Positions 1-7,592 of a DNA stretch of 64,000 bases are shown in pieces (position 1 is the stretch's first letter; every line of letters begins with the position of its first letter). Under the pieces are notes generated by a model that was not told the DNA's origin, searched no databases, and saw only the letters and a program-made list of their open reading frames with translations. The DNA is from an uncultured Oscillospiraceae bacterium (GTDB lineage Bacteria > Bacillota > Clostridia > UMGS1883). The DNA lies in the NCBI GenBank assembly GCA_964390145.1, contig CAYMHB010000001.1:6389-70388 (forward strand), in the 5' to 3' direction. The translations under genes and the position numbers were made by a program.

Positions 1-3000
1 TTCCTTTTTCACGGGCGTCGGCTATCGACTGCGCCGCGCGGTCACCCATTCCTGCTATGCTGTTGAGAGCGGGAAGTATCTTACCATTTATATTAAGGTA
101 CTTTGTCGGGTGAGACAGATAGATGTCAATCGGCATAAACTCAATACCGCGTGCGTACATTTCGTTTACTACTTCCATAATGGTAATGGTTGCTTTATCA
201 CGTGCTGACGGATTTTCAATGGAGCGAAGTTCGTGCATCTTGCGGAGCAGGTTTTCTCTTCCCGTTGCCATTGTTTCGTAGTCAAACGTATCTGCACGGA
301 CAGTATAGTACGACTGGTAGAATGCTATCGGATGATGCACCTTGAAATATGCAACACGAAGTGACATTGTGACATATGCCGCTGCGTGGGCGCGCGGGAA
401 CATATACTGAATTTTGTTACACGATTCAATGTACCACTCGGGAACGTTATGTTCACGCATTTCCGCTTCGTCCTCGGGTTTAAGCTTTTTACCCTTACGA
501 ACCTGTTCCATTATGGTAAATGCTCTTGCCTCGGGAAGTCCGCGGTTTGACAGGTAAATCATAATATCGTCACGGCAGCAGATTGCGTTTCGAAGTGTAC
601 ATATTCCCTTTTCAATAAGGGTCTGAGCGTTATTTGTCCACACATCAGTACCGTGAGAAAGTCCTGAAATGCGGACAAGTTCGCCAAGGGATGTCGGTTT
701 TGTGTCGACAAGCATCTGACGGACGAATTTTGTACCAAACTCGGGAACGGCGAATGTGCCCGTTTCGCTACCTATATCTTCGGGGGTGACTCCAAGAGCT
801 TCGGTACCGAGGAAAAGGCTCATAACATCCTTGTCGTCGAGTGGAACTTTTGTCGGGTCAACTCCCGTAAGGTCCTGAAGCATACGAATCATAGTGGGGT
901 CATCGTGGCCGAGAATATCGAGTTTGAGCAGGTTTTCGTCGATGCTATGGTAATCAAAGTGAGTTGTTATGATGCCGCTTTCCGCCTTTTCAGCAGGGTG
1001 CTGAATGGGCGTGAATTCGTGAATATCGTGCCCCTTGGGAAGAACGATAACACCGCCGGGGTGCTGTCCTGTCGTGGTTTTTACATTCATTATTCCTTTT
1101 TTAAGGCGTTCCACCTCGGCATTGTGAACATACTCGCCCTTCTGTTCGAAGTACTTTCTGACATAGCCGTACGCCGTTTTCTCTGCAACTGTACTTACCG
1201 TTCCTGCGCGGAAAACATAGCCCTTGCCGAAGATTTCTTCCGTATATTTATGGGCGCTTGCCTGATTTTCACCCGAGAAGTTAAGGTCGATATCGGGCTG
1301 TTTGTCACCCTTGAATCCAAGGAAGGTTTCAAAGGGAATATTGTGACCGTCTTTCACATAAGGAGTGCCGCAAACGGGGCAGTTTTTGTCTGGCATATCA
1401 AGTCCCGAGTCATAACTTTCATCCTCTGTGAACTCGGTGTTTTTACAATTCGGGCATCTGTAATGCGGAGGCAGTGAATTAACCTCAGTAATCTGTGCGC
1501 AATACGCCAGAAATGACGAGCCTACGCTACCACGTGAGCCTACAACATATCCTTCCTCGCGCGAGTGTTTAACGAGAAGTCGCGCGATGTTATAAAGGTC
1601 GGCGTAGCCGTTACCAATAACGCTTTTAAGTTCTTTCTGAAGCCTATCCTCAATCTTCTGAGGCAGAGGAGATCCATACAAACCTTCGGCGGTTTCACGG
1701 GCAATACGCTCAATATCTTCGGCGCTTCCCTCGATTTTCGGCGGGAAATTCCCCTTGGGTACGGGGCGTATGTTTTCAATCATATCAGCTATTTTATTGG
1801 TGTTTGTTACAACAATTTCGTACGCCTTTTCTTCGGGAAGATAGGAAAATTCATCGAGCATTTCACGGGTTGTTCTGAAGTAAAGAGGTGCCTGCATATC
1901 AGCATCCTGATAGCCTTGGCCCGCCTGAAGAATACGGCGGAAAACCTCGTCACGTTTGCGAAGAAAATGCACGTCACCCGTTGCTACAACGAGTTTTCCA
2001 AGCTTGTCCCCGAGAGCAATAACCTTGCGATTAAGCTCGCAAAGTCCCTCGCGGTCAGCAACTGTACCATTGCGCACGAGATATTCATTATTCCCTATCG
2101 GTTGAACTTCAAGATAGTCATAATATGAAGCAATACGCTCCAATTCCTCATCACTTTCACCGCTTAAAACTGCGCGGAAAAGTTCGCCCGCTTCACATGC
2201 AGAGCCCAATATAAGCCCTTCACGATGGGCGTCAAGCACATCTCTGGGAATGAGCGGTCTTTTATAAAAATGTTCCAGATTGGATGCGCTTACAAGCTTG
2301 TAAAGGTTTTTAAGGCCTGTAAGATTTTGCGCAAATATAATTATGTGATACCGCTTCGTTTCACGCGCAAGGGGAGAACCCTTTTCAATGAGATATCCCT
2401 CACAGCCGTAAAGTATTTTTATGGTTTCGTCAGCTGTATGGAACGCCTCCGGAAATGCCTGCACGCATCCGTGGTCTGTTATGGCGATAGCCTTGTGACC
2501 GTATTTTATAGCCTGTTTTACAAGGTCTTTTGCACTGACAACAGCGTCCATGGCTGATGATTTTGTATGCGCGTGGAGTTCCACTCGTTTCTCCTCGGCT
2601 TCGTCCTTCTCGCGGGGGAGTTCGTAGGGAATAATATCACGCGCCATAACTGTAAGCTCGTGAGAGAAATTATCCATTTCCGCCTTGCCGCGGAGAGCGA
2701 CTACGCCCGTTTTCTTAAGTGCTCCTGTAACCTCTTCGGTTGCGGCAATGGGGACAAAGCACTTACAGGTAATCGAAGATGTGTAGTCTGTTATGTAGAA
2801 AGAAACGATTGATTTTTTGATTTTTGTAATTTCTCTGGAATCTATTCCAAAAACCTCACCGCAAATCATACAGTTTCCAGTGTAGTTATCGATTTCTTTT
2901 ATGTTTATAAGGTCGTTTACGGGGAAAGGCTTTCCCATCAGTGCACCTTCCGATGCCACGGAAACAATCTTCTTTGGAGCAGAATTTTCCTTTTTTATAT

Positions 3001-3496
3001 AAATAGGTTCGAGATTTTTCTCTACCGTCATTTCGTCAATATCAAAAGAAACTGTTTTTTCGATACCAAACCACTTTTTAAGGCACGCAGAAATTTCCTT
3101 GCCAACACCTTCGTTTTCGGCAAGGTCAATATTTCCGTGGCGCAAGAACACCGTTATACTCTCTTTTTCAGAGCTTAAAATACAACTGTCAAGAATTGCA
3201 CGCCAGAAAGGATTTTGTGACAAAATCGCATCTATGCAGTAGTTTGCAGCATCATTTTCGTCTATTTTCCCTGCATCAAAAGAAAGGTTTAACACAAAAT
3301 CGCGGAGTTTATAACTTTCCTTGACGTTCTTTATAAACTTTTCCACTTCACTATATTCAAATATTGTGTCTGAAACGGCGTTGGCAGTAATTGTTCGCTC
3401 ATTCGCGTCCGCTGAAATGCCAAGTATTTTAGCATCTTTCAAGGGGCCGCTGTATTGCGCATTTATAAACGCCTCGCCCAAAGTGTAGTTTTGCAT
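1..3496 (-). CDS. polC: DNA polymerase III PolC-type alpha subunit (partial, C-terminus beyond window edge), lacking the DEDD exonuclease insert
   Basis: Reverse frame is open from ATG 3496-3494 (TAATG overlap with the ispG stop) to position 1. It is absent from the ORF track because no stop lies in the window. My translation shows an OB-fold segment (ICGEVFGIDSREITKIKKSIVSFYITDYTSSITCKCF), the PHP motif VELHAHTKSSAMDA...ITDHGCVQAFPEA, ATGDVHFL, GSRGSVGSSF, the Zn module CPNCKNTEF...CPVCG, KLDILGHDDPT and FPRAHAAAYV. The last residues (NSIAGMGDRAAQSIADAREKG) match the PolC C-terminal region. Confidence 0.9.
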   Translation of the reverse strand, partial: MQNYTLGEAFINAQYSGPLKDAKILGISADANERTITANAVSDTIFEYSEVEKFIKNVKESYKLRDFVLNLSFDAGKIDENDAANYCIDAILSQNPFWRAILDSCILSSEKESITVFLRHGNIDLAENEGVGKEISACLKKWFGIEKTVSFDIDEMTVEKNLEPIYIKKENSAPKKIVSVASEGALMGKPFPVNDLINIKEIDNYTGNCMICGEVFGIDSREITKIKKSIVSFYITDYTSSITCKCFVPIAATEEVTGALKKTGVVALRGKAEMDNFSHELTVMARDIIPYELPREKDEAEEKRVELHAHTKSSAMDAVVSAKDLVKQAIKYGHKAIAITDHGCVQAFPEAFHTADETIKILYGCEGYLIEKGSPLARETKRYHIIIFAQNLTGLKNLYKLVSASNLEHFYKRPLIPRDVLDAHREGLILGSACEAGELFRAVLSGESDEELERIASYYDYLEVQPIGNNEYLVRNGTVADREGLCELNRKVIALGDKLGKLVVATGDVHFLRKRDEVFRRILQAGQGYQDADMQAPLYFRTTREMLDEFSYLPEEKAYEIVVTNTNKIADMIENIRPVPKGNFPPKIEGSAEDIERIARETAEGLYGSPLPQKIEDRLQKELKSVIGNGYADLYNIARLLVKHSREEGYVVGSRGSVGSSFLAYCAQITEVNSLPPHYRCPNCKNTEFTEDESYDSGLDMPDKNCPVCGTPYVKDGHNIPFETFLGFKGDKQPDIDLNFSGENQASAHKYTEEIFGKGYVFRAGTVSTVAEKTAYGYVRKYFEQKGEYVHNAEVERLKKGIMNVKTTTGQHPGGVIVLPKGHDIHEFTPIQHPAEKAESGIITTHFDYHSIDENLLKLDILGHDDPTMIRMLQDLTGVDPTKVPLDDKDVMSLFLGTEALGVTPEDIGSETGTFAVPEFGTKFVRQMLVDTKPTSLGELVRISGLSHGTDVWTNNAQTLIEKGICTLRNAICCRDDIMIYLSNRGLPEARAFTIMEQVRKGKKLKPEDEAEMREHNVPEWYIESCNKIQYMFPRAHAAAYVTMSLRVAYFKVHHPIAFYQSYYTVRADTFDYETMATGRENLLRKMHELRSIENPSARDKATITIMEVVNEMYARGIEFMPIDIYLSHPTKYLNINGKILPALNSIAGMGDRAAQSIADAREKG

Positions 3497-4542
3497 TATA
3501 ATTCCTCAATTTCCTTGAAAAGTTCATCTGCGGCTTTTTCAATAGGGATTTTACGGATTGTTTGTCCATTTTTGAAAAGAAGCGCCTCACCTTTTCCGCA
3601 GGCAATACCAATATCAGCCTCACGCGCTTCTCCCGGGCCGTTTACTGCACAGCCCATAACTGCGACGGTAATATTTTTATCTGTTTTTGATATTCTTTCA
3701 TTTATTTCATTTGCCACGGGAATCATATCCACCTGACATCTGCCACAGGTAGGACAGCTGACGAATCTTATTCCGCTACGCAGATTAAGTGCGCGGAGAA
3801 TTTCTATTCCTGCCGCCACCTCACGCACGGGTAGTGCAGTAAGCGAAACGCGGAGAGTATCCCCTATTCCGTCAAGTAGCAAGCTGCCGATACCGATACT
3901 GTTTTTCACAACACCGCCGTATTCTGTACCTGCCTCGGTAACGCCTATATGGAGGGGGTAATCTATCATATCCGCAATTTTTCTGTAAGCAGAAACTGTT
4001 GATTCTACGCTGCTGCTTTTAATAGAAAGAGCGATGTCGTAGAAATTGCAATCTTCAAGAAGTTTTATGTGCGAAAGTGCACTTTCGCAGAGTGCTTCGG
4101 GAGTGGGCGCACCGTATTTTGCAAGAATTTCTCTTTCAAGTGAACCGCCGTTTACACCGATACGGATAGGGATATTGCGAGAGCCACATTCGTCTGCAAC
4201 CGCCTTTACGCGGTCGGCAGAGCCTATATTTCCGGGGTTTATACGAATTTTATCAACGCCACCTTTTGCGCACTCAAGCGCAAGACGGTAGTCAAAATGA
4301 ATATCGGCAACTATCGGAATATCCACTTGCTTTTTTATTTCGGCAACAGCTTTTGCCGCAGTCATATCAGGGATTGCAAGTCGCACTATATCACAGCCTG
4401 CCAAAAAAAGTTCCTGTATCTGACTTACTGTTGCAGCTACATCACGGGTGTCTGTATTGCACATTGACTGCACGCTTACAGGTGCGCCGCCGCCAACCAA
4501 AACACCACCGATATTTATTTGTTTTGAAGTGCGTCTTTTCAT
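3496..4542 (-). CDS. ispG: 4-hydroxy-3-methylbut-2-en-1-yl diphosphate synthase (GcpE/IspG)
   Basis: ORF 3496..4551. Shows KQINIGGVLVGGGAPVSVQSMCNTDT, TIM-barrel-like repeats and C-terminal Fe-S ligands (SCPTCGRC, GCAVNGPGE). Start placed at ATG 4542 (AAGGTG about 6 nt upstream) rather than GTG 4551. Confidence 0.9.
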   Translation of the reverse strand: MKRRTSKQINIGGVLVGGGAPVSVQSMCNTDTRDVAATVSQIQELFLAGCDIVRLAIPDMTAAKAVAEIKKQVDIPIVADIHFDYRLALECAKGGVDKIRINPGNIGSADRVKAVADECGSRNIPIRIGVNGGSLEREILAKYGAPTPEALCESALSHIKLLEDCNFYDIALSIKSSSVESTVSAYRKIADMIDYPLHIGVTEAGTEYGGVVKNSIGIGSLLLDGIGDTLRVSLTALPVREVAAGIEILRALNLRSGIRFVSCPTCGRCQVDMIPVANEINERISKTDKNITVAVMGCAVNGPGEAREADIGIACGKGEALLFKNGQTIRKIPIEKAADELFKEIEEL

Positions 4543-4708
4543 AAAAATCACCTTTTAGAATAATTATAATTATTTTATCACAAAACAAACGACAGGTAAA
4601 GAGCGAATTTGCACAAAAAAGAAGCGTGCCGCTTCACCCATTTCGCGTCCCAACTAAATTTTAAACTGACAAATATTGCTCGCGAAAAAACACTCAATTT
4701 CTTATACG

Positions 4709-4740
4709 GTAAAAAACACGGTGGCGTTCGCCACCGTGTT
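4709..4740 (-). terminator. Rho-independent terminator after the SLH protein gene
   Basis: An 11-bp GC-rich stem (aacacggtggcg / cgccaccgtgtt). It is followed on the minus strand by TTTTTT and lies 10 nt after the stop at 4750. Confidence 0.75.
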
Positions 4741-4749
4741 TAAAGATGT

Positions 4750-7527
4750 TTATTTTACAATATAAATAGCCTTTGCTGTGCTGTTTGTAGTATCTGTTAC
4801 GAAAACAATGATTTCACTTGAGTTTCCTTCAGAAATACCGATATTATCGTACTTTGTATCACTGGGTTCAGCAATAAGGTTTCCTTCTTCATCAAATCTG
4901 TAAACATTAGTGCTTGATGTAAGACCGAATGTGAAGATGTTTCCTTCTTCCTGCTTCTGAGCTTCGGTATAACTGCTACCCATTGCTTTAGTTGCGCTTA
5001 GCTGTGTAGTTCCGATAACGTCGAATGCTTCCAGATATCTTATCTTAAGGTCACCTACATTGCTGGTGTAAGATCTGAAGTACATATAATCTTCATCGGG
5101 ACCTGCAGAATAAAGAAGTTCTTCGTCGCTTGCATCGTAAATCATTTCGATAGCAATTACGCCTGATGCATCTTCGATATAACGGATAACGTCACCTTCG
5201 CCCACTTCTTCAAATGATACTAAAGCATCGTCATCCTCAAAAGTCTTGAACTTGTCTTCTGAAATAGCAATTATTTCCTCGCTAGCGCCGCCCTTTTCAT
5301 AACCCCTGATCTGACGATTAGCTCTGTCAACACCGCTTACTACCATATAGGGAGTCGATGAAACAAAGTCGTATGCGGGGTCAACACCGTAAATAAGAAC
5401 CATAGAAGGCTGTTTTGTTCTCTGTTCGGGATCTGCACCGAAGATTTTAACTTCGCGTGTGCCACCTGACACAAATGCCTTGGAAGGAGCCATGATAGAG
5501 TAGTCGCTGTCGTTTGTGCTGTCTTCGGGAACATATACAACTACAGTAGACGCTGAAACCTGATATGCCATGCCGCTTAATGTCAGGCTGGTTCTGGTTG
5601 TTGCTGCATTGCCACCGTCGTTATAGATGAATGTATCATCGCTGTTTGAGCCGATTGCAGTCGCTCTTTCGCCTTCTGCAGTCGCTGCTGTATCAATTGC
5701 GGAAAGTTCGCCGTTTGTTATGATATATTTTACGGGCTGTGAGCACACATCTGTGCCGTAAAGGTCGTAAGCAATATCTTCAAGTTTAGCCTTTACATCA
5801 CTGTTATCAGTTGAAACGCCGTCAACCTTTACCTTGTTCTTCATGGTAACAATTTCAAATGTCTTATCTTTCTTGATAAGGCTTACTGCCACTCTGTCGG
5901 CGTCAATGATATAACCAAGGTCATACTCGCCTGATGTAAGAGGATTATAGTCTATCGCTGCAAGCTGACCTGTGTAGTCAAGGTAGTACGTGTAAGTGTC
6001 ACCGAGTGTGAAGGGTGCCTTGCCTGAGCCTTCAAAGTCATTATACATATTTGTAAGTATAACTTCCTTATTGGTAAGCTCTACAACTCTTTCCTTGTCA
6101 AGTTCTGCTGTTACCTTGCCACTGTACTGCTTGGTAGTAACATACATCTTACTGATAGAGTTGCCGCCAACTTCGGGTGCTTCCATAAAGTTAATTACAT
6201 TAAATGCACGAAGTGTGAGTGAATCGTATTCCTTTTTCACACCGTCAACATAGATTTCAGGCTTGTCGTCTGTTGCTGAGGGGAATGTGTAGTAACCGCC
6301 GTCATACTTGAAAGTAATCTTGCCTGATGTTCTGTTGAAACTTTCTACAACATAAACATCGTAGCTTGTAATCTTTGCAAACTTTCTGCGACCTGTTTCG
6401 ATAAGTTCGATTGTACCGCTTGTAAAATCTTCGTTGAGGTCTTCTATAATGTCACTGTTTGAAGGAATATACTTTCCGTTATAGATAACAGTGTAGTCGG
6501 AAAGGTCAACTGTTGTTGTTTTTTTATTATCATTATAGTACTTGATTCTTCCATTTTCGATGGGACGAATTACATCTTTTTCGTTGATGAGAGTAATTGT
6601 GTTGTTTGCCTTTGTAATAGATGTAAGTTTACGGTCAAGGGTGTTGTAGTAAGCAGTTACGCCCTTACCGATAAGGTCTTCAAAATCGATAGCGTTTGCA
6701 AGTTCGTCAGAAAGCTCGTATGTTTCTTCACCATTTTCAGTTGTTAAAATCTTGATTTCCTTAAGGCTGATACCTGCACTGGAAGCATCAATACCTGTAT
6801 AGTAAGTACCTGAAACGATACCCTTTACTTCAACAACTGTCTTTTCTTCACTTTCTGTATTTTCGCCCTTTCCTACGCTACCGTCCGCATTTTGAACAAG
6901 CGGAGTAACATCAATAGCGTTACTTGTAAGAAGTGCTACGACACCTCTTGAAGCAGGTTCCGAAATTTCTGCAGTTACTGCTCCCTTTGTAAAGCCGTGC
7001 TTGTTAGCAGCAGAAATATAACCTGCAGACCATGTAGCGTTGGGGTTTGAAATAATCGCTTTATTATATTCGCTCTGCGCAACGATTTCGTAACCTGCTG
7101 CACAAACGAGCATCTTTACTGCCTGCTCGTATGTAACGGGTTCACCTGCACGGAATGTGCCGTCTTCAAAGCCGTTGATAATATTAAGGTCTACTGCTGC
7201 TTTTACATAAGGACGAGCCCAAGCGCGTGAAGAGTCGTTATCAAGGTCAGAAAAGCCTGTTGCAGCATCTGTACCAAGTGTTTCGCCAACACCCTTCATA
7301 CGAACAACAATAGCTGCAAACTCGGCTCTTGTTATCTGATTATCGGGTCTGAATGTGCCGTCCTCATATCCTGTTATGATGCCATTGGCAACAAGCTTTG
7401 CAACTGCTTCTGCTACCTTTTCATCTGTAATATCACTGAAATTCGTTGCAAGTACGCCAAAGCTCATAGTTGAAATAATAAGCACAAGCGCAAGAATTAA
7501 AGTGACAATTCTTTTTGAGTTTTTCAT
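4750..7527 (-). CDS. Secreted cell-wall-anchored protein with three N-terminal SLH domains and a large uncharacterised C-terminal region
   Basis: Signal peptide KRIVTLILALVLIISTMSFGVLA, followed by three SLH-like repeats (FSDI..., GYEDGTFRPDNQITRAEFAAIVVRM, GFEDGTFRAGEPVTYEQAVKML). Start set at ATG 7527 (GGAGAG 6 nt upstream) instead of 7545. Confidence 0.8.
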   Translation of the reverse strand: MKNSKRIVTLILALVLIISTMSFGVLATNFSDITDEKVAEAVAKLVANGIITGYEDGTFRPDNQITRAEFAAIVVRMKGVGETLGTDAATGFSDLDNDSSRAWARPYVKAAVDLNIINGFEDGTFRAGEPVTYEQAVKMLVCAAGYEIVAQSEYNKAIISNPNATWSAGYISAANKHGFTKGAVTAEISEPASRGVVALLTSNAIDVTPLVQNADGSVGKGENTESEEKTVVEVKGIVSGTYYTGIDASSAGISLKEIKILTTENGEETYELSDELANAIDFEDLIGKGVTAYYNTLDRKLTSITKANNTITLINEKDVIRPIENGRIKYYNDNKKTTTVDLSDYTVIYNGKYIPSNSDIIEDLNEDFTSGTIELIETGRRKFAKITSYDVYVVESFNRTSGKITFKYDGGYYTFPSATDDKPEIYVDGVKKEYDSLTLRAFNVINFMEAPEVGGNSISKMYVTTKQYSGKVTAELDKERVVELTNKEVILTNMYNDFEGSGKAPFTLGDTYTYYLDYTGQLAAIDYNPLTSGEYDLGYIIDADRVAVSLIKKDKTFEIVTMKNKVKVDGVSTDNSDVKAKLEDIAYDLYGTDVCSQPVKYIITNGELSAIDTAATAEGERATAIGSNSDDTFIYNDGGNAATTRTSLTLSGMAYQVSASTVVVYVPEDSTNDSDYSIMAPSKAFVSGGTREVKIFGADPEQRTKQPSMVLIYGVDPAYDFVSSTPYMVVSGVDRANRQIRGYEKGGASEEIIAISEDKFKTFEDDDALVSFEEVGEGDVIRYIEDASGVIAIEMIYDASDEELLYSAGPDEDYMYFRSYTSNVGDLKIRYLEAFDVIGTTQLSATKAMGSSYTEAQKQEEGNIFTFGLTSSTNVYRFDEEGNLIAEPSDTKYDNIGISEGNSSEIIVFVTDTTNSTAKAIYIVK

Positions 7528-7592
7528 AAAATCTCTCCTTTGCATTGGTGACGTGTAAAAAACGCCATAAAATGTATATTACACTCAATTAT

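Follow-up and report, generated by a model that had tools for sequence, protein, structure and literature searches.

The window analysed here, a stretch of 64,000 nucleotides, begins within a polC gene that reads as one open frame on the minus strand (positions 2-3496, 1165 codons, without stop or frameshift) and is followed by ispG, which lies directly upstream of it (Table 1). The full-length ORF encodes 1208 amino acids (G000:C1:6258-9884) and runs 127 nt past the start of the window. PolC is the textbook replicase with a built-in DnaQ proofreader, a DnaQ-like DEDDh exonuclease (Exo) domain that normally sits within a loop of the PHP domain, and it is a target of antibiotics now under development. 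An earlier note on this DNA had reported that the Exo domain is missing here and had quoted a junction peptide free of stops and frame changes; the translation reproduces that peptide exactly.

Table 1. Features of the polC locus, in window coordinates
Feature	Position	Strand	Basis
polC, exonuclease-less PolC-type DNA polymerase III alpha	1..3496	-	ORF, NF001688 and 3F2B match
Polymerase core (palm, thumb, fingers)	470..1714	-	PF07733 E=4.2e-54, PF17657 E=4.6e-24
PolC-specific Zn module CPNC...CPVC (residues 681-709)	1370..1456	-	Aligned with CPNC...CPRC of 3F2B
PHP C-terminal half, ligands H384, C434, D508, H510	1817..2347	-	PF02811 and ligand alignment
17-residue loop GYLIEKGSPLARETKRY (residues 367-383), replacing the DnaQ-like Exo domain of ~195-210 aa	2348..2398	-	
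PHP N-terminal half, ligands H308, H310, D317, H342, E366	2399..2581	-	PF02811
OB fold (residues 211-289)	2630..2866	-	PF01336 E=2e-5; aligned to 3F2B OB domain
PolC N-terminal domain region (residues 1-200)	2897..3496	-	NF001688 match from profile position 22
ispG (HMBPP synthase)	3496..4551	-	NF001540 475 bits, cut-off 345

The window-truncated protein of 1165 residues scores 1452.6 bits against the NCBIfam model NF001688 (cut-off 873) and 1347.1 bits against the second PolC model of the NF001688/TIGR01405 pair (cut-off 1043.45), and the solved delta-Exo PolC of Geobacillus kaustophilus (3F2B) matches it with 1096 bits over residues 209-1165. Its domains follow the order expected of PolC, from an N-terminal domain through OB fold, PHP domain and polymerase core to HhH, the OB fold lying ahead of PHP; Pfam places OB at 211-289, PHP at 306-459 (PF02811, E=2.2e-33), DNA_pol3_alpha from 595, the finger domain at 866-1009 and HHH from 1117, the OB match (PF01336, 24.9 bits) being slightly below the Pfam gathering cut-off of 27. 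The cysteine motifs of the Zn module (CPNC 681-684, CPVC 706-709) align with those of 3F2B, and the catalytic motifs PDIDLNF (734-740, nt 1277-1297) and LDILGHDD (859-866, nt 899-922) are identical in that structure. The rest of the protein is thus PolC, as had been claimed from its N-terminal domain, OB fold and CPNC...CPVC module. Near the C-terminus, the sequence QVSMF resembles a QxxLF sliding-clamp-binding motif.

The exception lies between the two halves of the PHP domain. In a six-frame search of the genome, NF001688 matches the polC ORF in two pieces, at profile positions 22-415 (G000:C1:8745-9839) and 611-1444, and the ~195 positions between them (416-610) are absent. A Pfam search of the protein for PF00929 (RNase_T/DnaQ) yields no match, even at E<=1, and alignment with the PolCs of sister families shows that FDIETTG, AHNAxFD and HHRAVNDA lie in precisely the block that is missing. 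The absence of a DEDD exonuclease domain, as first reported, is borne out. The nucleotides 2351-2386, given in the earlier note as a bridge of about ten residues, encode EKGSPLARETKR (residues 371-382), the core of the 17-residue loop. When aligned to the G. kaustophilus structure, the loop falls where the crystal construct 3F2B, an engineered delta-Exo form, has its GSGSG linker. With no DnaQ-like DEDDh exonuclease inserted in PHP, this protein is an exo-less variant and not a canonical member of the PolC group, and it is confirmed that the PolC of this organism is without a built-in DnaQ-type proofreading domain.

A short junction of this kind could arise from an assembly or binning error, mark a pseudogene, or belong to a secondary paralogue whose canonical partner had been missed, and the source genome, a MAG of 53 contigs, gives such a reading some initial footing. 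Its relatives speak against it. Among 48 genomes of the family, which span six GTDB-level genera of uncultured gut Clostridia, 43 PolCs were recovered and every one has the exo-less junction, with the C-terminal match starting at profile positions 599-632; an intact canonical PolC was found in none of the 48. The loops measure 12-23 residues, roughly as long as their counterpart in polymerases of the DnaE1 type, and where the ORF is complete the family proteins have ~1210-1340 aa, compared with ~1410 aa for the canonical PolCs of two sister families. In these sister families the canonical match is contiguous in 20 of 22 genomes, the other two being contig-end fragments. Dozens of assemblies made independently, from goat, sheep, buffalo, roe deer, human and other samples, show this junction too, and its loop sequence is conserved; the frame is open, and proteins of the clade share 60-94% identity.

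Orthology points the same way. The exo-less PolCs form one clade of the tree (25 rows, SH-aLRT 100), which pairs as sister group with the canonical PolC of one neighbouring family, f2 (SH-aLRT 99), and the canonical PolCs of a second, f3, branch next outside the two; identity to the sister-family canonical PolCs is 55-69%. The gene ispG lies upstream of polC at 41 of 46 Exo-containing loci and at 35 of 42 exo-less ones. In keeping with the earlier note, the gene is a true PolC at the customary ispG-polC locus, and it is the orthologous and sole PolC of its organism. An artefact, pseudogene or paralogue is effectively refuted, and we give it almost no probability. The family-wide gap, the nested position in the tree and the shared ispG slot together lead us to conclude that the Exo domain was deleted in place, once, in the family ancestor. 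We considered and rejected the possibility that polC had been replaced horizontally by a gene that lacked Exo beforehand, since the clade has canonical PolCs from its own order as its sister group.

Across the PolC tree, parsimony requires seven changes of Exo state, at least five of which are forced by strongly supported branches. The loss in the present family is independent of at least four others in Clostridia and Negativicutes, and it is distinct from those of Megamonas (Negativicutes), Hominifimenecus (Lachnospiraceae), an Anaerovoracaceae-like group and other exo-less lineages. The 1240-1290-aa exo-less PolCs of Megamonas, Hominifimenecus, Anaerovoracaceae and others were also considered as secondary paralogues. 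This idea was dropped on the evidence of synteny and tree: most of these genes, including those of Hominifimenecus and the Anaerovoracaceae-like group, occupy the ispG-polC slot (no ispG match was found at the two Megamonas polC loci), and the proteins group by taxonomy. The listing of mostly one PolC per genome by Timinskas et al. (2014; PMC3919608) also argues against paralogy.

As a possible substitute proofreader the earlier note had named the PHP domain. It had considered all nine PHP metal-ligand positions to be occupied, and the alignment columns confirm this: the ligands read HHDHEHCDH, namely H308 and H310 (HAH, 308-310), D317 (AMDA), H342 (TDHG), E366 (GCEG), H384 (YHIII), C434 (GSACE) and D508 and H510 (GDVHF). 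The protein carries the PHP-exonuclease signature HHDHEH[C/H]DH, as defined elsewhere (PMC12926913). Ligand 8 merits particular attention. In Mycobacterium tuberculosis DnaE1 the PHP nuclease is the proofreader, mutation of D226 inactivates it and D226N serves as a catalytic mutant, whereas G. kaustophilus PolC, in which one PHP ligand is mutated, shows no PHP exonuclease activity (PMC5636811). At the counterpart of D226 the window PolC has Asp and not Asn: D508 (ATGDVHF) lines up with Asn in the two solved Bacilli-type PolCs, 3F2B and 9QPC (ATGNVHY in both), and with Asp in Thermus aquaticus Pol III alpha (2HPI, ATNDGHY). The Asp that the earlier note had set against an Asn in Bacillus subtilis stands, and the Asn is confirmed for these two structures.

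Each of 76 PolCs sampled from other clostridial and Negativicutes genomes, with or without Exo, has the same motif, HHDHEHCDH, whose nine ligands are invariant over at least five independent exo-less lineages. It is present in 35 of 35 sampled Exo-containing clostridial PolCs, for which reason we rejected the intact motif as a compensating change; because it is equally intact in PolCs that keep Exo, the PHP site is better described as a pre-existing possible backup. An intact motif that is common to Exo-containing clostridial PolCs does not point to a functional shift. As a separate matter, the nine ligands could persist for reasons of structure or metal-dependent folding, a role proposed for the Escherichia coli PHP domain (PMC3666897).

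Further candidates were sought in the rest of the genome. As the earlier note had suggested, it was searched for a stand-alone dnaQ and for a second polC; neither was found, and a DnaE is present (G000:C9, 1144 aa; NF005298 1664 bits, cut-off 1260). The nine PHP ligands of this DnaE1 are again HHDHEHCDH, and T. aquaticus Pol III alpha has the identical set; the DnaE1 site is as good a proofreader candidate as that of PolC. The genome thereby shows the variant described by Timinskas et al. (2014), an exo-less PolC in Clostridia paired with DnaE1 rather than with DnaE3, whose types have disrupted PHP sites (PMC3919608). MutS1 is intact. Searches of the 82%-complete genome with PF00929 at E<=0.01 and TIGR00573 at E<=1 returned no match, and a weak partial PF01612 match (23.8 bits) falls in an 845-aa ORF that is taken to be Pol I.

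A separate, epsilon-like DEDDh exonuclease might instead serve PolC, its gene here being on an unassembled contig or too divergent to be recognized. The incompleteness of the genome leaves room for this, and a stand-alone DEDDh ORF (FDVET, AHNAPFD, HHNAASD; mostly ~186-213 aa) does occur in 13 of 36 genomes of the same genus, beside topB at all six loci inspected. The remaining 23 lack such an ORF, some of them being 92-98% complete, and the present assembly covers the place beside topB, where another ORF directly adjoins and no remnant is left. In addition to the empty PF00929 and TIGR00573 searches, the stand-alone gene stays well short of all NCBIfam epsilon equivalog cut-offs (138.9 at best, against 373), and so patchy an accessory gene cannot be the essential proofreader of the family. 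The topB-side exonuclease was accordingly rejected as a general trans proofreader, and we regard a separate DEDDh exonuclease as improbable.

The explanation that we favour, and consider fairly probable as a whole, is an ancestral in-frame deletion of Exo after which the PHP domain of PolC, that of DnaE1, or both would proofread. The deletion removed the DnaQ-like DEDDh domain in the family ancestor and left a loop of 12-23 residues. All parts required for polymerisation are kept, from the N-terminal domain, the OB fold and the PHP barrel to the Zn module, the catalytic Asp motifs and HhH, and throughout the family the gene itself is conserved. By analogy with engineered delta-Exo PolCs of the same boundaries, which are fast, the protein would still be an active replicative polymerase. 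Proofreading in the 3'-5' direction would then be performed by PolC's own trinuclear-metal PHP site on its own primer end, by the PHP site of the co-resident DnaE1, or by both; the two sites carry the full 'active' signature HHDHEHCDH, in which G. kaustophilus PolC has Asn in place of the last Asp. MutS mismatch repair would be kept as a post-replicative backstop. Clostridia usually have three 'active' proofreaders (PMC12926913), the candidates being PolC-DnaQ, PolC-PHP and DnaE1-PHP, and tolerance of the loss of one among the three would account for the repeated Exo losses. By analogy with Thermus thermophilus Pol III alpha and M. tuberculosis DnaE1, it is plausible that PHP supplies proofreading in the exo-less PolC. 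The narrower proposal, that this PolC is the main replicase of the family and proofreads via its own PHP site, is one that we put forward tentatively.

The principal competitor to PHP proofreading by PolC is a non-proofreading PolC, whose PHP domain would serve folding or stability only, fidelity coming from the DnaE1 PHP domain in trans, from bulk synthesis by DnaE1 and from mismatch repair. The DnaE1 ligands described above are those of a Pol III alpha whose PHP domain has reported exonuclease activity, and the intact MutS1 would fit such a scheme. Trans-proofreading between two polymerases has a precedent in B. subtilis, where the DnaQ domain of PolC can proofread for DnaE3 (PMC12926913), the PHP domain of G. 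kaustophilus PolC is without exonuclease activity (PMC5636811), and a motif as conserved in Exo-containing PolCs as in exo-less ones needs no proofreading role to explain its conservation. However, ligand 8 of the G. kaustophilus enzyme is Asn, the very change that inactivates M. tuberculosis DnaE1, whereas the window PolC has Asp; moreover, the invariance of the nine ligands in at least five independent exo-less lineages tells against a merely structural site, and a replicase without a proofreader in cis would be unusual. On balance we consider a non-proofreading PolC unlikely, while giving it clearly more weight than a separate exonuclease.

Natural exo-less PolCs with a complete PHP site are obvious material for asking whether the PolC PHP domain proofreads. 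Should PolC here proofread by its own PHP site, it would be a PolC-type polymerase that depends on PHP, the ancestral proofreader. Wherever ligand 8 of PHP is Asp, PolC could then do without its DnaQ insert. This would account for the five or more independent deletions seen in Clostridia and Negativicutes, and no Exo deletions would be expected in Bacilli, ligand 8 being Asn in both solved PolCs examined. Comparison of the family with its canonical sister families would amount to a ready-made natural experiment. The case is well delimited, with a single loss at the base of a whole family of gut bacteria and canonical sister families for comparison, and it adds that a DnaQ-family gene was not found in 23 of 36 same-genus genomes and that mismatch repair is retained in the window genome.

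Canonical PolCs, such as those of the sister families, B. subtilis and Staphylococcus aureus, share with the window PolC the ispG-polC slot and the domains outside the insert, and differ in their DnaQ-like domain of ~200 aa with intact DEDDh motifs. M. tuberculosis DnaE1 (5LEW) and the Pol III alpha of T. thermophilus and T. aquaticus (2HPI) resemble it in their complete nine-residue trinuclear-metal signature and in a short loop, with no DnaQ insert, between ligands 5 and 6; the likeness extends to the epsilon-type subunit, which was not found in the present genome. These enzymes are of the DnaE1 type, with another domain order and without the Zn module, and nuclease activity is demonstrated for them. 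Also similar are the engineered PolCs Gka-PolC-deltaN-deltaExo (3F2B/3F2C/3F2D) and Sau-PolC-deltaN-deltaExo, from which Exo was cut out at practically the same point on either side, the natural ...PLARETKR/YH... aligning with ...PIAYNETHRRL-GSGSG-PFH... of 3F2B. Such constructs are active, fast polymerases, and Sau-PolC-deltaN-deltaExo, with residues 415-609 deleted, polymerises at 330 per second (PMC3656037); unlike them, the window PolC keeps its N-terminal domain, has Asp at ligand 8 and was selected, not designed.

The earlier note had wondered whether a PolC of this kind was undescribed. It is in fact a further example of a type known since 2014 and not a new kind of system: Timinskas et al. 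(2014) found the Exo insertion missing in 6% of PolCs, all from Clostridia and Negativicutes save one extra PolC copy in Thermotogae (PMC3919608). The exo-less PolCs of that survey and the present one agree in the loss of Exo from PHP, in their occurrence in Clostridia, in a DnaE1-type partner and in a conserved PHP site. They differ in that the present lineage is known from MAGs only, and so lay outside a survey of complete genomes, and in that the loss is here mapped to the stem of one family with canonical sister families beside it.

The PolC of the window lacks the DnaQ-like DEDDh proofreading exonuclease domain (Exo) that is inserted in the PHP domain of canonical PolC. An earlier note had claimed this, and profile searches bear it out: the Pfam model RNase_T/DnaQ (PF00929) has no match in the ORF even at E≤1, and in a six-frame search of the genome positions 22-415 and 611-1444 of the NCBIfam PolC equivalog NF001688 are matched within one ORF, so that about 195 profile positions are absent. 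The protein scores 1452.6 bits against NF001688 (cut-off 873) and 1347.1 bits against the equivalog TIGR01405 (cut-off 1043), and Pfam also matches the DNA_pol3_alpha, finger and HHH domains. Alignment with PolCs of two sister families (f2 and f3) shows that the absent block is exactly the one with the DEDDh motifs FDIETTG, AHNAxFD and HHRAVNDA; a short loop replaces it. All peptides quoted in the note are present in the ORF, which reads through the junction with neither stop nor frame change, as was stated there.

Coordinates of the features discussed (G000, genome of the window, assembly GCA_964390145.1; other G-numbers, genomes of relatives; C, contig)
Feature	Position	Strand	Details
polC	window 2-3496	minus	single unbroken frame, 1165 codons, extends past window edge
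polC, full ORF	G000:C1:6258-9884		1208 aa
EKGSPLARETKR	residues 371-382; nt 2351-2386	minus	translation of polC
Loop GYLIEKGSPLARETKRY	nt 2348-2398	minus	17 residues, replaces Exo block between PHP ligands E366 and H384
OB fold	residues 211-289		Pfam match in PolC
PHP	residues 306-459		Pfam match in PolC
Secreted protein	window 4750-7545	minus	931 aa, between ispG and lgt
Secreted paralogues	G000:C1:3036-3806 and 4219-4950		~250 aa, just outside window
DnaE (DnaE1)	G000:C9:11948-15379		1144 aa, NF005298 at 1664 bits
ORF with PF01612 match	G000:C26:14314-14562		845-aa ORF
Syntenic topB site	G000:C2:78600-81450		outside window
DEDDh gene beside topB (L094-L099)	G032:C80, G025:C114, G009:C63, G028:C4, G031:C70, G035:C25
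Second PolC-like stretch (L087)	G030:C12:26178-29354		includes Exo domain
Second exo-less PolC-like ORF	G061:C243:24557-27019		1110 aa
Second exo-less PolC-like ORF	G077:C10:3071-4996		738 aa

The genome is a metagenome-assembled genome (MAG) of 53 contigs and 1.49 Mb, 82% complete. An assembly artefact is effectively excluded as the origin of the short junction, since dozens of other MAGs, each assembled independently from goat, sheep, buffalo, roe deer, human and other samples, show it as well; their PolCs are 60-94% identical to that of the window and have the conserved loop E-x-[GD]-x-[PQ]-L-x-[RK]-[ED]-T-K-R-Y-H. Across 48 genomes of the window's family (six genera of uncultured gut Clostridia), the C-terminal match begins at profile position 599-632 in all 43 PolCs recovered, and complete ORFs measure about 1210-1340 aa. 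Sister families show a contiguous canonical match in 20 of 22 genomes (contig-end fragments in the remaining two) and complete ORFs of about 1403-1468 aa. A pseudogene or stray paralogue is rejected given the open frame, the single PolC and single DnaE of each same-genus genome and the absence of any intact canonical PolC from the 48 family genomes searched. One same-genus MAG (G030) holds a second PolC-like stretch, with eight in-frame stops over the match and just 42-46% identity to any sampled clostridial PolC; contamination by a foreign contig or a foreign copy in decay is the probable explanation. Second exo-less PolC-like ORFs accompany the main PolC in G061 and G077, genomes of other genera of the family.

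A maximum-likelihood tree of 89 PolCs (Exo columns removed, quick search, support by SH-aLRT only) unites the 25 exo-less sequences of the window's lineage in a single clade (SH-aLRT 100), sister to the canonical PolC of f2 (SH-aLRT 99), with those of f3 next. Seven changes of Exo state are needed over the whole tree, at least five of them forced by strongly supported branches, and other exo-less lineages stand apart (Megamonas/Peptococcaceae, Hominifimenecus/Lachnospiraceae, an Anaerovoracaceae-like clade, Defluviitaleaceae and others). Exo was lost from the resident gene in a single event on the stem of the window's family, independently of the other losses. Between PHP ligands 5 and 6, clean exo-less PolCs carry 12-23 residues and canonical ones about 210; the PolC of an uncultured Defluviitaleaceae bacterium (L038, CAYURR010000134.1), nested among Exo-containing relatives, has a 68-residue insert there that may be an eroded Exo remnant.

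The description of polC as lying at its canonical locus is right for the clostridial ispG-polC arrangement: ispG is directly upstream in the window (NF001540, 475 bits) and occupies that position in 41 of 46 loci with Exo and 35 of 42 without it. In many Firmicutes rimP-nusA follows polC; these are not the genes found downstream here, where two paralogous small secreted proteins with near-identical signal peptides (MKKFMKAIAFATVMCLVLST...) hold the place. Residues 34-148 of the 931-aa secreted protein resemble the C-terminal part (possibly SLH-like) of a NEAT/LRR surface-protein model, and its remainder has no family match.

The search for a stand-alone dnaQ-like exonuclease, proposed in the earlier note, detected no DnaQ-family gene in the 82%-complete genome by PF00929 (E≤0.01) or TIGR00573 (E≤1). 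Proofreading by a DnaQ in trans is therefore unlikely to be the general solution. A stand-alone DEDDh ORF (mostly about 186-213 aa; motifs FDVET, AHNAPFD and HHNAASD) does occur in 13 of 36 same-genus genomes, adjoining topB (topoisomerase III) in all six loci inspected; at the assembled syntenic site of G000 it is absent with no remnant, and a different 243-aa ORF, putatively NAD synthetase-like from its N-terminal sequence, directly follows topB. The DEDDh gene looks like an accessory rather than a family-wide epsilon subunit. An 845-aa ORF, taken to be Pol I, matches the DEDDy 3'-5' exonuclease domain only weakly and in part (PF01612, 23.8 bits, profile positions 62-128); the proofreading domain of this ORF may likewise be degenerate.

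All nine PHP metal ligands proposed to be occupied were found in the window PolC (H308, H310, D317, H342, E366, H384, C434, D508 and H510), and they fit the signature HHDHEH[C/H]DH, 'active' in a 2026 survey (PMC12926913). Ligand 8 is Asp (ATGDVHF), as in T. aquaticus Pol III alpha, whereas the solved Bacilli-type PolCs 3F2B and 9QPC have Asn (ATGNVHY). G. kaustophilus PolC is reported to have one PHP ligand mutated and to lack PHP exonuclease activity; in M. tuberculosis DnaE1, whose PHP domain proofreads, the catalytic mutant is D226N (PMC5636811). Because the motif is identical in 76 of 76 PolCs sampled from other genomes, with or without Exo, the intact site pre-dates the loss, as redundancy already in place and not an adaptation to it, which fits the three 'active' proofreaders usual in Clostridia (PMC12926913). 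In DnaE1 of G000 the nine PHP ligands are all identical to those of T. aquaticus alpha. In our best reading, proofreading would be done by PolC's own PHP nuclease acting in cis, by that of DnaE1, or by both. Its main rival holds that the PolC site is structural only and that DnaE1 and mismatch repair carry fidelity; MutS1 is intact in G000 and in 60 of 60 relatives searched.

Exo was removed at essentially the same boundaries in two engineered PolCs, S. aureus PolC delta 415-609 (PMC3656037) and the crystallised G. kaustophilus protein 3F2B; in the latter a GSGSG linker lines up with the loop of the natural enzyme. Both are well-behaved, fast polymerases, and by analogy there is no reason to doubt that the window PolC would polymerise. 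The variant itself is already described: in the Pol III alpha survey of Timinskas et al. (NAR 2014, PMC3919608), the Exo insertion is missing from 6% of PolCs (16% of DnaE1-paired PolCs in its summary table), all from Clostridia and Negativicutes, where PolC is paired with DnaE1, save one extra Thermotogae copy, and the PolC PHP site is conserved. To this the present analysis adds a further lineage, known from MAGs alone, a loss cleanly placed on the stem of a single family whose sister families have canonical PolCs, and the absence of a DnaQ-family gene from the majority of same-genus genomes (23 of 36). This PolC is direct test material for whether the PolC PHP domain proofreads.
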